From a virus, in UHGV virus genome UHGV-0208284: a stretch of 12,688 bases of DNA, one strand, 5' to 3'. The position numbers and the translations under genes were made by a program. Positions 3,185 to 12,688 of this stretch are shown piece by piece. Within the stretch, counting starts at the first letter, position 1, and every line of letters begins with the position of its first letter. The notes under the pieces are model-generated. The model ran no database searches. It had not been told where the DNA came from and saw nothing but the letters and a program-made list of their open reading frames with translations.

Positions 3185-4696
3185 ATGGGTTTTTTTGATA
3201 AAGCACTTGGCGCAATTGCGCCAGGGTGGGCAGTTTCGCGTGCCAGAAACAAAATGCTGTTGAGGGCTTATGAAGCAGCGCAGCCTTCACGCCTGAATAA
3301 GGCCCGGCGCGAAGTCCGTTCGGCGGATACTGCTGTTTTTGCAGCCGGGACGTCATTACGTGAACAGGCAAGAGCGCTGGATGAAGATCACGATATCGTG
3401 ATTGGTCTGCTGGATAAGCTGGAAGAGCGGGTTATTGGCGCACAGGGGATCCAGGTCGAGCCGCAACCACTGAGAAGCGACGGCACGCTTCATGAGTCAC
3501 TGGCGGAGCAGATATCGTCGCTGTGGTCTGAATGGTCCGTTCGCCCGGAGGTGACGGGGATGTTCACCCGTCCGGAAGCTGAACGGATGGCGCTGCGATC
3601 CGCCTTGCGTGATGGCGAAATGTTTGTACAGCTGGTGCGCGGACCTGTCGCCGGGCTGAATCATTCCACTGTGGTGCCATTATCACTGGAGCTTCTCGAA
3701 GCAGATTTTGTTCCGGTTAATCTGAATACGAATGCAGGGCAACAGATCCGTCAGGGCATAATTCTTAATAACTGGGGGCGGCCTGTAGGATATCGCGTAT
3801 ACAAATATCATCCTGCAAATCTGCGCGGTTTCAGCGCCGAGCTCAAAACTGTTAAGGCGGACAGCATGCTGCATCTGGCGATGCGGAAGCGCCTGCATCA
3901 AGTAAGAGGTGTCAGTCTGTTACATGGCGTGATTCGCCGGATTGCAGATCTGAAAGATTACGAAGAATCAGAGCGAGTGGCTGCCCGTATTGCTGCCGCG
4001 CTTGGCTTCTACATTAAACGCGGTGATGCAGCCAGCTTTCCGACGGATAACGACTGGACACCTCCGGAACAAAAAAACCGATATTTTGATATTTCGCCGG
4101 GCATGATTTTTGACGAACTGGCACCCGGTGAAGATCTGGGAATGGTGGAGTCTAACCGCCCGAATGTTCATCTTTATGAATTCCGTAACGGTCAGTTGCG
4201 GGCTGTGGCTGCCGGAACCCGTGGCAGTTATTCCAGTATTGCCCGTGACTATAACGGCTCCTACAGTTCGCAGCGCCAGGAACTGGTGGAAGGTTACGAA
4301 GGCTACGGTGTTTTACAGCAGTGGTTTGTCGGTCAGTACAGTCGCCCGGTGTACCGGGCATGGCTGGAGCAGGCAAAGCCTTTTCTTGATATTCCCCCTG
4401 ATGTGGATATATCCACGCTTTTCAACGCAACTTATCTTGGCCCGGTGATGCCGTGGATTGATCCGGTGAAGGAGGCTGCAGCATGGCGGGCCATTCTTCG
4501 CGGTGGTGCCGGGACGGAGGCCGAGTGGATACGTGCTCGTGGGCAGTCACCGCAGGAAGTAAAACGCCAGCGACTGCGTGAAACTGAATTTAACCGGGAA
4601 AACGGTTTGGTGTTCGATTCGGATGCCGCTAACGATAAAGGAGTGATTCCTGATGCAGCAAATGACAAGTCCGCGTCTTCGCGGGACGATAATTAA
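3185..4696 (+). CDS. Portal protein (lambda gpB-like, putative)
   Basis: 503-aa ORF located between the W-like gene and the prohead protease, with a GAGGA ribosome-binding site upstream of the ATG. Size fits lambda-family portals. The assignment rests on synteny and size; I do not recognise a diagnostic motif. Confidence 0.65.
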   Translation: MGFFDKALGAIAPGWAVSRARNKMLLRAYEAAQPSRLNKARREVRSADTAVFAAGTSLREQARALDEDHDIVIGLLDKLEERVIGAQGIQVEPQPLRSDGTLHESLAEQISSLWSEWSVRPEVTGMFTRPEAERMALRSALRDGEMFVQLVRGPVAGLNHSTVVPLSLELLEADFVPVNLNTNAGQQIRQGIILNNWGRPVGYRVYKYHPANLRGFSAELKTVKADSMLHLAMRKRLHQVRGVSLLHGVIRRIADLKDYEESERVAARIAAALGFYIKRGDAASFPTDNDWTPPEQKNRYFDISPGMIFDELAPGEDLGMVESNRPNVHLYEFRNGQLRAVAAGTRGSYSSIARDYNGSYSSQRQELVEGYEGYGVLQQWFVGQYSRPVYRAWLEQAKPFLDIPPDVDISTLFNATYLGPVMPWIDPVKEAAAWRAILRGGAGTEAEWIRARGQSPQEVKRQRLRETEFNRENGLVFDSDAANDKGVIPDAANDKSASSRDDN

Positions 4697-6740: not shown

Positions 6741-6741
6741 T

Positions 6742-6769
6742 AAAAACCGCCGGACAGGGCGGTTTTTTT
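6742..6769 (+). terminator. Rho-independent terminator downstream of the capsid gene
   Basis: An A-tract, then stem ccgcc (6747-6751), loop ggacag, stem ggcgg (6758-6762), then T7 (6763-6769). The A-tract/T-tract flanks could extend the stem to 9 bp, which would let it act in both directions. It lies 2 nt after the capsid stop codon. Confidence 0.75.
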
Positions 6770-6815
6770 ATGACTGAGGCGGCGTGGCAGGCGCCGCATT
6801 TACCGGAGAGAAAAA

Positions 6816-8234: not shown

Positions 8235-8797
8235 TGGAACCATTGATGATGGGAACCTGGCATCGGGCAGTGATTGACAGTCTGAAACAAATTCCCTGGG
8301 TGGAAGATGCCGATGACTACCCGGAAAAAGTGACGCAACTGGTGACGCCTGCCGTGTTTGTGGATGTACCCGGCTGGGACAAGGCTCAGTTTGCCGACGG
8401 GCAGACACGGGTCACGCTGAAATGCGATCTGTTTGTGGTGACTGATCGGGCCGGAAAGACGGAAAACGTGCCAAAACCGCAGATATTTGCCCGCTGTCTG
8501 GCAATGGATTTATCTGACTGGATTGATGGAGCCACGTTCGGGCTGGATAACGTTGACCCGGCGGTTTTTATCGATGCTGAGGTGGATACCTTCGACCGAC
8601 TGCTGGACGACTACATCGTTTTCCGTGTCTCTTTTGAACAGGACATTCCGGTCGGCGAAGATCCGTTTGCAGTTCCGGCAGGTGCGCCGTTACAGGAAGT
8701 CTGGCTGGGTAAAGTACCGGAAACCGGTAAAAAGCATGTGCAGAATTATCGTCTTATCTGGAAAGCGGAGGGCACCGGTGATGAGTCTGGCGGATGA
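8234..8797 (+). CDS. Hypothetical phage structural protein (possible tail-completion or neck protein)
   Basis: 187-aa ORF with ATG overlapping the upstream stop (TGATG) and GGAG 4 nt upstream. It is acidic and lies immediately upstream of baseplate V. Family not recognised. Confidence 0.5.
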   Translation: MEPLMMGTWHRAVIDSLKQIPWVEDADDYPEKVTQLVTPAVFVDVPGWDKAQFADGQTRVTLKCDLFVVTDRAGKTENVPKPQIFARCLAMDLSDWIDGATFGLDNVDPAVFIDAEVDTFDRLLDDYIVFRVSFEQDIPVGEDPFAVPAGAPLQEVWLGKVPETGKKHVQNYRLIWKAEGTGDESGG

Positions 8798-9404
8798 AGT
8801 GGCAGAGTTACGCCGCAGGGTGGCGGATATGGTCCGACGCGGCGTGGTGGAGGAGGTGATCCCGGGTAGCCCGGTGATGGTCCGGGTGGATATCGGGGAT
8901 GTGCTTTCACCGCCGTTGCCCTGGATTCAGGTGCAGTCCGGGCGTTACATGCAGGTCAGTAATTACCCGGCACCCGGAGATGCGGTCACGGTGATATCGG
9001 AGGCAGGTGATCTGCGTAATGGTCGGGTGTATCCGGGGGCCAACATTGACGCGATTCCGGTACCGGCGGGCAGTGAACACGAGCATGTTATTTTGTTTGA
9101 TACCGGAACGGAGATCCGTTACGACCGCCAGGCTAATGCCCTGTCCATCACGCTGGCTGAAGGCGGCAGCTATAAAATCACCGGCAGGGGAACGCTTGAC
9201 GGTCCGGTGGAAATCACGGATACCCTGACTGTGCAGGGAAAAACGAAGATTAATGCCGATACGCAGGTTCTGGGCAATATCGGTGCCTCACAGGAGATCA
9301 CCGACAAAACCGGTAGCATGAGTAAAATCCGCGAAATTTATAATACTCATGATCACCCAGGCGACAGCGGGGGAACCACCCGTAAACCTAACCAGGAAAT
9401 GTGA
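8781..9404 (+). CDS. Baseplate assembly/spike protein (P2 gpV-like)
   Basis: 207-aa ORF with a GGAGGG ribosome-binding site 7 nt upstream of the ATG. The C-terminal motif HDHPGDSGGTT (nt about 9349-9381) matches the conserved C-terminal motif of P2 gpV-family spikes as I recall it, and the size matches. The ORF track extends this frame upstream to 8487, but that part overlaps the previous gene and is probably not translated. Confidence 0.85.
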   Translation: MSLADEVAELRRRVADMVRRGVVEEVIPGSPVMVRVDIGDVLSPPLPWIQVQSGRYMQVSNYPAPGDAVTVISEAGDLRNGRVYPGANIDAIPVPAGSEHEHVILFDTGTEIRYDRQANALSITLAEGGSYKITGRGTLDGPVEITDTLTVQGKTKINADTQVLGNIGASQEITDKTGSMSKIREIYNTHDHPGDSGGTTRKPNQEM

Positions 9405-9405
9405 A

Positions 9406-9427
9406 CGCCGCACCGGCGTTTTTTTTT
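9406..9427 (+). terminator. Weak terminator-like hairpin plus T9 tract between baseplate V and W
   Basis: Stem cgccg (9406-9410), loop cac, stem cggcg (9414-9418), then nine T residues (9419-9427). The 5-bp stem is short, so at most a partial terminator or attenuator. Confidence 0.35.
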
Positions 9428-9439
9428 CGGAAAAATTTC

Positions 9440-9796
9440 ATGATTGGTATTGATTCCGCCACTGGCAGATATCTGCACGGTAACGAACATCTGCGTCAGT
9501 CCGTCACCGATATTTTATCAACACCGGTCGGCAGCCGGGTACTTCTCAGGGAATACGGCAGTAGGTTGTTCAGTCTGCTTGATAACCCGCAGGATGATTT
9601 TACGCGGGTGAGGATTGTCCGTGAAACGGCAACCGCCCTTGAACGCTGGGAACCCCGCCTGACCCTCCGGCGGGTGGAGGTGACGTGGACAGGAGAAGGA
9701 AGCGCCTGGCTGACGCTTGTCGGGGTGAACAACGAAACACAGGAAACGATTCGACTCGAGGAGATAAAAATTGGCAGCATCTCAGGCAATCATTGA
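9440..9796 (+). CDS. Baseplate protein (P2 gpW-like, gp25 family)
   Basis: 118-aa ORF. The motif STPVGSRVLLREYGS and an overall pattern (ALERWEPRLTL ... V) resemble P2 W / T4 gp25-like baseplate wedge proteins. The start is taken as ATG 9440; an alternative GTG at 9401 would overlap the V stop and place the hairpin/T9 inside the coding sequence. Confidence 0.8.
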   Translation: MIGIDSATGRYLHGNEHLRQSVTDILSTPVGSRVLLREYGSRLFSLLDNPQDDFTRVRIVRETATALERWEPRLTLRRVEVTWTGEGSAWLTLVGVNNETQETIRLEEIKIGSISGNH

Positions 9797-10685
9797 TCTG
9801 TCCGCGATACCTGTACCGGATGCGGTGGAGGTGCCGGACACCGCTGTACTGGTCACTCAGATAGTGGCGAAATATCAGGAACTGGACACGTTGTTTTCGG
9901 CCCTGGTGGAATCCGATCCGGCGTATAAATGGGCAGAGGCACTGGCTTTTCGGGTGGCGCTGATGCGCCAGCAGGTCAATGATGCTGTCCGGGCTGTACT
10001 GCTTGCCAGTGCCCGCAGGAACGATCTGGATCAGATTGGTGCGAATTTTCAGGTGCAACGTCTGGTGATTACCCCGGCAGATGACAGCACTATCCCGCCC
10101 ACGCCTGCGGTGTATGAAGATGATGACGCTTTTCGCGAACGTATTCAGTTGTCATGGGCACGACTCAGCACCGCAGGCGCGAGAAACGCATACCACTATT
10201 TTGCACAGAGTGCCGATCCTGATGTGCTGGATGTGAAAGCCTACGGACCGGAAACGCATTCACAGGAAGGGCGTGTTTTTCTTTATGTGTTAGCGCGTAC
10301 AGGAAATGGTACGGCATCACAACCTCTGCTGGATAAGGTGGCGGCGTCAGTCAATGATGATGAAATTCGACCCCTGACGGATTTTGTCAGCGTCCGTGCG
10401 GCAGAAATTATTCCCTACGATGTGGTGGCGGATATCCATATTCCCTACGGGCTGGATGGTGAACTGGTGATGAAAAATGCCCGCCAGGCGCTGCAGACCT
10501 ACACTGACAGTGTGCACCGGATTGGCTCTGTGGCGTCCTGCTCAGGTATGGACGGAGCCCTGCATCAGACGGGGGTGATTACGGTGGCACTGAAATCGCC
10601 GGCCAGTGATATTGTTCCGGCGATGGGGCAGGCTCCATGGTGTCGCTCAGTCACACTGAACAAGGTGGAGACAACCGATGAATGA
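9771..10685 (+). CDS. Baseplate protein (P2 gpJ-like)
   Basis: 304-aa ORF. IIDLSAIPVPDAV near the N-terminus and NDLDQIGANFQVQRLVITPADDSTIPPTPAV (nt about 10020-10113) closely parallel P2 J as I recall it. The apparent start is TTG 9771 with a GAGGAG ribosome-binding site 8 nt upstream; it overlaps the W-like gene by 26 nt. The first in-frame ATG is about 65 codons downstream, beyond the conserved N-terminus. Confidence 0.85.
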   Translation: MAASQAIIDLSAIPVPDAVEVPDTAVLVTQIVAKYQELDTLFSALVESDPAYKWAEALAFRVALMRQQVNDAVRAVLLASARRNDLDQIGANFQVQRLVITPADDSTIPPTPAVYEDDDAFRERIQLSWARLSTAGARNAYHYFAQSADPDVLDVKAYGPETHSQEGRVFLYVLARTGNGTASQPLLDKVAASVNDDEIRPLTDFVSVRAAEIIPYDVVADIHIPYGLDGELVMKNARQALQTYTDSVHRIGSVASCSGMDGALHQTGVITVALKSPASDIVPAMGQAPWCRSVTLNKVETTDE

Positions 10686-12688
10686 CAAAATCAGAAGCAT
10701 ACTACCGGTCAGCGCCACCCGGGCAGAGCGGGTGGTGGACAGTACTGCCGGTGATATGCTGGCGGAAATCGCGGTCTGTCTGATCCGGTATGTCAAAAAT
10801 CCCGATTTATGTCCTGCTGAATTGCTGCCATGGCTGGCCTGGGAAATGTCGGTGGATACCTGGAACGAACACTGGACAGAGGCGGAAAAAAGGGCGGCAA
10901 TAAAGCGTGCTGCCTATATCCATCGTCACAGGGGAACAAAAGCCGCACTGAATGAATCCCTGGCAGACAGTCCGTTCCGGTCGCAGATTGTGGAGTGGTA
11001 TGAGCAGACGCCACCGGGAGATCCCTATACCTTCCGGCTGAATGTGGAGCAGAAGGACCTGCCGGTTCTGATAAACGACCACCAGGATTTGAAACATGCC
11101 GTATTACGGGCAAAAAATCTGCGCAGCTGGTTCAGTGTTCATATTTACGGAAGTAGTCGCGGAAATGGCTTTGGTTATGGTTATGTCACCGCGACGGAAA
11201 AACTGAAAAACAGGATACTGCCGTCAGAAATACAGCTGATACCAGATAATCTGCGACTGATCCCCGGAGAAGAGGTGTCTGTAAAGGTGACGGTGCTTCC
11301 CCTGATTGCAGATGATCGTTCGTTTACGGTACAGATCGAAGATGAAGGCGTGGCGGCAATCAGTATTTCTGGCGATATTATTACTCTGACAGGGAAGCGG
11401 TTTGGTCACACCACTGTAATTGTTTCAACGGTGAATGGTGTGATTGCCAGACTGCCCGTAAATGTTGTGTCTGTTGTTCAGGTTATTGTTCGTGCTGATA
11501 ATGTCAGCAGACCTCTGTTTTTTACAGACGCTCAGGATAATGACTTCACCATTGATTATGGTGATGGAGTGGACTGCAGGGATTATGTCATTGAAGCAGG
11601 TATGGTTAAAACCACCCGGGAATTACCTGTCGGGGAAGAAATTACGCTGACGATTAAAGGTGCTGAAAGTGTGACATTCTACTCATCATCAGCATTAAAC
11701 AGACCCAACCCATTACTGGAGATTATCAGGGTCAGTGGCACCAGAAGATATATGTCGCAGTTTGCAAATTTGCAGAATACATTACGAAAAATTCATGCAG
11801 GTGCTTTTGATAATTTGCCTCGTGCACTTTCATTCTCAGGGGCGTTTCGGGGATGTTCAGCATTAACTGAATTACCTGAAAACCTTTTTGCACAATGTGC
11901 AGAGGTATCTTCATGGAATGAGGTATTTTACGGATGTACTGGTCTGACAGATATTCCGGTTTTATTTGCACCTGAATCAAATGCGCGCACGCTTTCAAAG
12001 TTGTTCTACGGTTGTTCGAAAATAGTCCGGGTTCCGGAGGCGTTGTTTGCAGGTATGGATGACGCCTGGACTTTTGAGTCAGCATTTTACGGATGCAGCA
12101 AGATGGTTAATGCGCCGGCCATTCCCGCACGCAGTCTTCAGAACCTTTACATGACTTTTTCCGGTTGTAGTGAGCTGACTGAGCTTCCTGTGATATGGGG
12201 GAAAGAAAACGAAAGCCATGCGTTATCGATTAATTTGTCTTACGCATTTTACGATTGCCGGTCTCTGACTGTTATTCCTGAAAACTGGCTGGATGTTATC
12301 CGACATCGGATAGCGCATGTCAGAGGGATATTTAATAGGTGCTCCAGCATACGCAGTGTCCCCTCACGATTATTTGCCGGAGCAAATAATCTACGCACTG
12401 CTGACAATGCGTTTAATGACTGCCGCGGTATTACCCGTATCGGAGAGGGGGTGTTTGAGGGATGCCGGAGTCTGAGCGAAATAAACGATGCGTTCAGTTA
12501 CTGCAGTGCGCTTGAGACAACCGGCAACAGGATTTTTGCGGATTGTGTGTCTCTGAGGTCAGTGGCATCTGCGTTTGCCAACAGCGGTATTGTTAATGCC
12601 GGAGAAGAGCTTTTCGCTGGTTGTACATCCCTGACATTAATGGAGTCCGTTTTTGTAAACTGCCGGAAACTGGTTATGTTGCCGGACA
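10678..12688 (+). CDS. Tail protein: P2 gpI-like N-terminal domain fused to an Ig-like (Big_2-type) domain and Cys-containing LRR-like repeats; 3-prime end beyond the window
   Basis: Frame open from ATG 10678 (overlapping the J stop by 8 nt) to the window end, verified codon by codon with no stop. The N-terminal segment NPDLCPAELLPWLAWEMSVDTWNEHWTEAEKRAAIKRAAYIHRHRGT closely matches the P2 gpI N-terminus as I recall it (NPDTCPANLLPWLAWAFSVDRWDEKWPEATKRAVIRDAYFIHCHKGT). Nt about 11221-11470 encode a bacterial Ig-like pattern (VSVKVTVLPLIADDRSFTVQIEDEGVAAISISGDIITLTGKRFGHTTVIVSTVNGVIA). Nt about 11830-12688 encode at least 12 tandem degenerate repeats with consensus F-x-G/D-C-x-S/A-L-T-x-I/L-P-x-x-L-F. 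Confidence 0.85.
   Translation, partial: MNDKIRSILPVSATRAERVVDSTAGDMLAEIAVCLIRYVKNPDLCPAELLPWLAWEMSVDTWNEHWTEAEKRAAIKRAAYIHRHRGTKAALNESLADSPFRSQIVEWYEQTPPGDPYTFRLNVEQKDLPVLINDHQDLKHAVLRAKNLRSWFSVHIYGSSRGNGFGYGYVTATEKLKNRILPSEIQLIPDNLRLIPGEEVSVKVTVLPLIADDRSFTVQIEDEGVAAISISGDIITLTGKRFGHTTVIVSTVNGVIARLPVNVVSVVQVIVRADNVSRPLFFTDAQDNDFTIDYGDGVDCRDYVIEAGMVKTTRELPVGEEITLTIKGAESVTFYSSSALNRPNPLLEIIRVSGTRRYMSQFANLQNTLRKIHAGAFDNLPRALSFSGAFRGCSALTELPENLFAQCAEVSSWNEVFYGCTGLTDIPVLFAPESNARTLSKLFYGCSKIVRVPEALFAGMDDAWTFESAFYGCSKMVNAPAIPARSLQNLYMTFSGCSELTELPVIWGKENESHALSINLSYAFYDCRSLTVIPENWLDVIRHRIAHVRGIFNRCSSIRSVPSRLFAGANNLRTADNAFNDCRGITRIGEGVFEGCRSLSEINDAFSYCSALETTGNRIFADCVSLRSVASAFANSGIVNAGEELFAGCTSLTLMESVFVNCRKLVMLPD
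11830..12688 (+). repeat. Tandem degenerate coding repeats (F-x-G-C ... L-T-x-IP ... LF units) within the gpI-like fusion gene
   Basis: The protein-level period is about 23-28 residues in the first half and about 13-14 residues toward the window end. At nucleotide level the motif attttacggatg recurs (11927-11938, 12080-12091) with a near copy at 12245-12256. GC content is about 32-48 percent per 60-nt line here, against mid-50s in the head genes. Confidence 0.6.

Follow-up and report, generated by a model that had tools for sequence, protein, structure and literature searches.

Intrinsic terminators that are overridden by the antiterminator Q, such as lambda tR' and those downstream of it, appear in the late operons of phages as a G/C stem-loop on the coding strand with a U-tract 3' to it. 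Processive antiterminators allow RNA polymerase to bypass many terminators (PMC7969949). When a terminator is located a few base pairs past a stop codon, the terminating ribosome represses it almost completely, and terminator efficiency becomes maximal only beyond ∼30 bp from the stop codon (PMC4824070). For internal terminators in late operons, our literature search returned nothing usable. The closest described arrangement of the baseplate genes is the V-W-J-I-H-G order of P2 and Wphi (Peduovirus), and in Wphi the V and W genes overlap by ATGA, without a spacer or hairpin. Here, we describe a hairpin and T-run of the same general form as the Q-overridden terminators, located on the coding strand between homologous V (TIGR01644) and W (PF04965) genes that occur in the same order as in P2. 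The element was found in a 12,688-nt stretch of viral DNA (UHGV virus genome UHGV-0208284), hereafter referred to as the window. As an earlier note on this DNA had pointed out, baseplate genes are usually tightly coupled, and a spacer at this position is unusual next to the ATGA overlap of the P2-type genes.

The window corresponds to the late structural region of a prophage, and every gene lies on the + strand. The first gene encodes a DUF1441 small terminase and is followed by genes for a gpA-type large terminase, a lambda-family portal, a ClpP-protease/major-capsid fusion, a cement protein, a head-tail attachment protein, and two unknown proteins. These are followed by the 207-aa baseplate spike protein V (8781-9404), the 118-aa baseplate wedge protein W of the gp25 family (9440-9796; PF04965, E 1e-15), J (9771-10685; PF04865), and a long I protein (PF09684 plus Big_2 and LRR_5) that starts at 10678 and runs off the end of the window at 12688. 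V had no Pfam match at E ≤ 1e-3 and is matched by the NCBIfam model TIGR01644 (phage_P2_V; 77 bits versus a cutoff of 46.75), and its homologues in RefSeq are 624 nt long. Neighbouring genes nearly all overlap or abut, with only two gaps longer than 30 nt, one following the capsid gene (6741-6815) and the other between V and W (9405-9439). The gpI-family protein is very long, with more than 670 aa inside the window and ∼855-861 aa in relatives, as compared to 187 aa in SC476. The additional sequence follows the Tail_P2_I domain and contains a weak Ig-like Big_2 match and BspA-type leucine-rich repeats (LRR_5), an extension that is unusual for a baseplate wedge protein and may represent a receptor-binding module. 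Homopolymers also occur inside coding sequence, as an A8 run in the DUF1441 small-terminase gene (436-443) and as T7 (3190-3196, codons 2-4) and A7 (4071-4077) runs in the portal gene.

The V-W spacer consists of ACGCCG, CAC, and CGGCGT, followed by the T's and then CGGAAAAATTTC. Its 5-bp G/C core pairs CGCCG (9406-9410) with CGGCG (9414-9418) around a CAC loop (9411-9413) on the + strand, and the T9 run that follows (9419-9427) is the longest homopolymer in the window. The 5-bp GC stem and nine T's are therefore present as the earlier note had described them, and so is the spacer, although its length is 35 nt (9405-9439) instead of the 36 nt given there. RNA folding extends the core to an 8-bp stem, GAACGCCG paired with CGGCGUUU (9403-9410 with 9414-9421; −10.5 kcal/mol), and since the predicted fold reaches 9403, two bases of the V stop codon (TGA, 9402-9404) sit inside the stem. 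Downstream of the run, CGGAAAAATTTC (9428-9439) makes up the translation-initiation region of W and probably contains the ribosome-binding site.

A strict terminator scan (stem ≥ 5 bp, including ≥ 4 G-C pairs; loop 3-8 nt; seven or more T's immediately after the stem) was performed on both strands of the window. Only two sites were returned, the V-W element and a post-capsid site at 6747-6769. Both are on the coding strand, directly 3' of a stop codon, and they occupy the only two gaps longer than 30 nt. The mean expectation from 2000 dinucleotide shuffles was 0.014 sites, and none of the 2000 shuffles reached two. A T9 or A9 run by itself was present in 17% of shuffles and the local fold z-score of the V-W hairpin is a modest −1.7, so it is the hairpin, T-run, and position taken together that are significant. 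On this combined basis, the V-W hairpin and T-run are confirmed as real and non-random. With its G/C stem, 3-nt loop, and uninterrupted U-tract abutting the 3' side of the stem, the element has the predicted form of an intrinsic terminator. At gathering threshold, Rfam gave no match anywhere in the window. A search for an alternative antiterminator fold or leader found none, and the sole predicted alternative was the lower extension of the same stem. A single candidate for an internal W promoter was found (9301-9328; 9/12 match), with promoter-like sites in the window occurring at chance level (14 versus 11.4 expected), and no promoter hexamers flank the T-tract.

The transcriptional context of the element can be viewed in the closest full prophage, that of E. 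coli A19 (locus L023), which is 96% identical over the entire window. A19 has a lambdoid order consisting of a cI/cro-like region, RusA, and a DUF1133 gene, and then several terminator-like hairpins, holins, endolysin, and structural genes, all on one strand. The DUF1133 protein (PF06576) is found at the Q position and has a near-threshold match to Phage_antitermQ (PF06530; 25.6 bits versus a cutoff of 26). DUF1133 proteins of Stx phages have been listed as Q antiterminators by HHpred (PMC8136144). Because the closest whole prophage is lambdoid and carries this Q-like gene, which is located in A19 and lies outside the window itself, late transcription is probably resistant to terminators. Between the putative Q gene and the holin genes, the A19 region 33112-35080 contains genes for an AraC-family regulator and a divergently oriented hypothetical protein along with four or more terminator-like hairpins, and looks like a moron-type insertion in the late leader.

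Elements resembling the one between V and W recur in these operons. In the A19 late operon, a G/C hairpin with a T-run is present in at least four gaps, following the ClpP-MCP, V, fibre-assembly, and tube genes, and the SC476 prophage, a member of clade C (see below), has such elements after its capsid, V, and tube genes. From this distribution, the V-W element appears to be one of a set of putative late-operon punctuation elements. Its sister in the window (6743-6769, + strand) immediately follows the ClpP-capsid fusion gene and is conserved in A19 and SC476. This stem-loop, AAAAACCGCC-GGACAG-GGCGGTTTTT followed by T7, is stronger than the V-W hairpin, with a folding energy of −16.2 kcal/mol and a z-score of −5.1. 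It is also palindromic enough to appear bidirectional, and a second G/C hairpin in the same gap (∼6777-6800, GGCGGCG..CGCCGC) is likewise conserved in A19 and SC476.

We propose that the V-W element is a putative conditional insulator and does not set the V:W ratio, a reading that we regard as about evenly poised between right and wrong. The element would act where two modules meet, within a long late operon that runs in one direction and belongs to a lambdoid prophage with a P2-type contractile tail. A polymerase lacking both a Q-like antiterminator and a close trailing ribosome would terminate there, one example being stray transcription reaching the tail genes of a lysogen. In the lytic cycle, the element would be read through, as the late transcription complex would be terminator-resistant and the ribosome finishing V would cover the 5' arm of a stem that starts inside the stop codon. 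Such read-through would leave the element unable to tune V against W. Since Q modification and ribosome occlusion would both suppress termination, any benefit would rest entirely on the putative role in the lysogen. Our confidence is limited because the stem is short (five G-C pairs and a triloop) and because clade B, the commonest lineage among the relatives described below, lacks the hairpin. The low z-score and a clade C W-leader hairpin that has no T-run also count against an insulator. If the proposal is true, antiterminated operons could hold many internal stops that silence tail genes in the lysogen at no lytic cost.

The earlier note had suggested that the element could be an attenuator lowering W, J, and I expression relative to V. 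As a partial attenuator, it would end a fixed fraction of transcripts during lytic growth, so that W, J, I, and the fibre are lowered as compared to V and the head genes. The terminator anatomy fits such a role, and with sister elements following the capsid and tube genes, which encode high-copy proteins, a graded operon polarity is conceivable. However, by overlapping with the V stop codon, the stem falls in the zone where termination is repressed by ribosomes (PMC4824070), Q-type antitermination is the probable context, and clade B makes the same tail without the hairpin. Nor is there an alternative structure among the predicted folds that would make the element regulatable. A contractile-tail baseplate requires fewer copies of V, its trimeric spike protein, than of W, J, or I. 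As V is the low-copy component, a supply of W, J, and I below that of V would mismatch the need. Attenuation is thus unlikely, and the suggestion that the element lowers W, J, and I relative to V was not borne out.

To place the element among its relatives, the homologous V-W regions carried by 83 complete E. coli genomes were compared, along with contigs from IMG/VR and metagenomes, and were seen to form three groups. Against isolated phage genomes, megablast found no near match at the DNA level, a more distant search found similarity in the J gene only, and a W protein search of genome contigs found only five loci, all remote and of alpha- and beta-proteobacterial origin. Clade A comprises the 22 sequences, including the window, that are at least 92% identical to it. 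Their stem is identical in all 22, which is uninformative as to whether the structure is maintained, and one loop variant (C to T) occurs in L011. Clade B is the commonest lineage (∼66 of the 83 E. coli genomes) and is ∼81% identical across the junction. It retains the V-W order and a 31-34 nt spacer, TCTCCTTTCAGTTCTTTTTCCGGAATAAACAAC, that is alignable with clade A, and when this spacer was folded no hairpin was obtained; its T-run is interrupted or differs in length, ranging from T4 to T8. With the commonest lineage lacking the hairpin, the V-W element must be dispensable. A metagenome scan with the 20-mer AACGCCGTACCGGCGTTTTT identified six matches that are V-W junctions. Twenty further matches, found in unrelated contexts and followed by only T5, were treated as chance. 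Among the metagenome loci L197-L220, where the 20-mer recurs in such unrelated sequence, ∼12 contigs share a conserved ...GGGCTGCATCAACGCCGTACCGGCGTTTTTCGCGGCGG... context.

Clade C consists of 55 viral contigs and five E. coli genomes, includes Citrobacter phage Chris1, and has a V protein that is ∼62% identical. Here, the gene after V encodes the tail sheath instead of W. A hairpin is again found directly 3' of the V stop codon, with the form CCTGC-NNNN-GCAGG and T7. All 55 loci have the same 5' arm and 54 of them the same 3' arm; the loop occurs in eight variants, and 53 of the loci have a T7 run and the other two a T8 run. In Hafnia phage yong2, whose V is 54% identical, the element is the doubly compensated CCCGC-TCCG-GCGGG with T7. 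Tail blocks are permuted among these related lambdoid/P2-tail hybrids, as seen in A19, SC476 (L112), Chris1 (L113), and yong2 (L114). The window lineage has the order V, W-J-I-fibre-tfa, then sheath-tube-E-T-U-X-D, and clade C has V, sheath-tube-E-T-U-X-D, then W-J-I-fibre-tfa; V is attached to the head-completion genes in both.

These comparisons bear on whether the hairpin could be a neutral relic, a terminator left over from an ancestor whose tail genes were separate units (as in P2) and functionless now. The post-V junction is indeed a point of rearrangement, with V followed either by W-J-I-fibre or by sheath-tube-...-D, and in clade B the hairpin has decayed while its flanks can still be aligned and the length of the T-run drifts. 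A relic is difficult to reconcile with a stem that is unchanged in 22 of 22 clade A sequences differing by up to ∼8% elsewhere, or with the post-V stem of clade C, which is invariant around a free loop and has a compensatory pair in yong2. Together, the invariant stems, free loops, and yong2 compensatory pair suggest selection on pairing, and we consider a neutral relic to be rather unlikely.

The origin of the V-W stem was investigated by collecting 80 W genes with their upstream DNA. Stems and loops were counted directly; in the MAFFT alignment (A4), the 13-nt clade A hairpin sits one column out of register with the 12-nt hairpins. Many loci share a W-leader layout of a CGCC/GGCG stem, a 9-nt linker, (A)CGGAAAA, ∼7 nt, and ATG. 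A hairpin is present in 45 of the 80 leaders, including those of clade C, where D precedes W, and is absent from the other 35. The exact CGCC/GGCG stem is found in 25 of 80 with at least nine different loops, and stem variants include TGCC/GGCA, GCGCC/GGCGC, and TGCCACC/GGTGGCG. The CGGAA motif, 12-13 nt upstream of the W ATG, is kept in most lineages whatever gene precedes W. The window spacer aligns with these leaders without a gap and its T9 falls exactly on the 9-nt linker, so the stem is most simply explained as an inherited W-leader hairpin. The window CGCC/GGCG stem therefore appears to derive from the W-leader hairpin of the wider phage family, related to the D-W leader hairpin of Chris1/yong2-type phages and not to their post-V hairpin. 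In clade A, the 9-nt linker would then have turned entirely to T, by which the hairpin would have gained its terminator form. T-rich linkers or a full T7 occur in a few other lineages (L146, L148, and L142/L144/L145).

Such an ancestry raises the alternative that the hairpin belongs to a leader RNA of the W-J-I-fibre block, serving as a processing site, a stabilising hairpin, or an opener of the W ribosome-binding site, with the T-run being incidental. A CGCC/GGCG stem 9 nt upstream of CGGAA also where W follows D, an unchanged stem with at least nine loops in 25 of 80 loci, and the gap-free alignment of the window spacer all speak for this alternative, and because the clade C W-leader hairpin has no T-run, its stem must be conserved by something other than termination. 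On the other hand, a hairpin is lacking in 35 of 80 W leaders, a mostly invariant stem such as this provides little true covariation, Rfam has no matching family, and the clean T7-T9 linker of the window lineage is the very feature that makes a terminator. We consider a leader RNA role doubtful, if worth bearing in mind.

Hairpins of this kind are also found ahead of other tail blocks. The sheath gene is preceded by a G/C hairpin, T7, ATG, and GGAGAAA, whether it follows V (clade C and yong2) or the fibre-assembly gene (A19), and the W-J-I-fibre block retains its CGCC/GGCG hairpin, 9-nt linker, and CGGAA after either V or D. One cassette, CCCGC-TCCG-GCGGG-T7-ATG plus a purine-rich GGAG-type motif, is present at two different junctions, D-to-W in the viral contigs L142, L144, and L145 (∼660-700, upstream of W) and V-to-sheath in yong2 (L114, 2116-2151), which suggests that hairpin cassettes are exchangeable between junctions. 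In its broadest form, the idea would be that intergenic hairpins are portable leader cassettes, moving together with the tail-gene block that follows them and acting both as expression punctuation and as preferred breakpoints for block permutation, a generalisation we rate as conceivable but improbable.

The T-run itself was the subject of a second suggestion in the earlier note, namely that slippage in the tract could alter W expression, with the tract encoding FFF in frame if W were to start at a GTG codon at 9401. In the window, this GTG shares its frame with ATG 9440, and translation from it would give V N A A P A F F F R K N F M. When tract length was compared among relatives, as the note had advised, it was found to vary from T7 to T9, with T7 in three, T8 in 15, and T9 in four of the 22 clade A sequences including the window; some of the entries behind these counts may be duplicates between collections, and homopolymer sequencing error is possible in single records. 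Sequences with T9 have identities to the window of 99.4%, 96.6%, and 94.5%, and its occurrence on several backgrounds marks T9 as a real allele of a tract whose length has changed more than once.

GTG 9401 is in frame with the W ATG in T9 alleles only and is out of frame in T7 and in the majority T8, and in L001 and L026 a TAA stop replaces it (ATGTAA). All RefSeq homologues of W are annotated from ATG with a length of 118 aa. These observations refute the GTG-9401 reading. Read-through of the V stop codon would meet the next stop at 9441-9443, and as GTG 9401 is not conserved or is out of frame, the tract is non-coding. The run is flanked by the V stop codon on one side and the W ribosome-binding site on the other, and it precedes the conserved CGGAA motif; its length consequently has no effect on SD-to-ATG spacing. 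A non-coding tract at this position offers no route from length to W frame or W expression.

A phase-variable tract, in which slippage switches W through the GTG-9401 frame or through spacing, would draw on the T7, T8, and T9 alleles that have arisen more than once on different backgrounds among close relatives. However, with the tract placed between the V stop and the W ribosome-binding site, frame and SD-to-ATG spacing stay constant, and with the GTG replaced by TAA or out of frame in T7 and T8 sequences, W remains intact at 118 aa. Phase variation is for these reasons extremely improbable. The claim that tract length alters W expression likewise fails, as the tract is outside the W frame and every allele keeps the 118-aa protein. 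The polymorphism is as expected for a homopolymer under weak constraint, drifting between seven and nine T's.

Overall, the V-W element is an ordinary feature, another terminator-like hairpin inside a phage late operon. For annotation, the value of the analysis lies in placing the W start at ATG 9440, in adding one more predicted internal terminator, and in cautioning that the T9 tract should not be annotated as a site of frameshifting or phase variation. A mildly novel aspect is that junction hairpins appear to stay with the gene block that follows them when tail modules permute, and this module-leader pattern in relatives could be of use for studying the rearrangement of mosaic phage genomes.

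As compared to lambda-type late terminators, the V-W element shares the setting of a long one-directional cluster with a Q-like gene upstream (in the closest relative) and several elements per operon. It differs from the lambda tR' type in its short stem of five G-C pairs, in abutting the upstream stop codon, and in lying deep in the structural genes instead of beside the late promoter. The baseplate genes resemble those of P2, whereas the head and regulatory genes here are lambda-type. A close counterpart to the element is the post-V hairpin of Chris1, yong2, and their prophage relatives, which likewise has a 5-bp G/C stem starting from the V stop and a T-run after it (T7 there), but that stem has a sequence of its own, CCTGC/GCAGG or CCCGC/GCGGG, and leads into the tail sheath gene instead of W. 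Like homopolymeric contingency tracts, the V-W run consists of a single repeated nucleotide (7-9), and close relatives differ in its length; unlike them, it is found outside coding sequence and is not enclosed by promoter hexamers, and its changes in length are predicted to have no on/off consequence.
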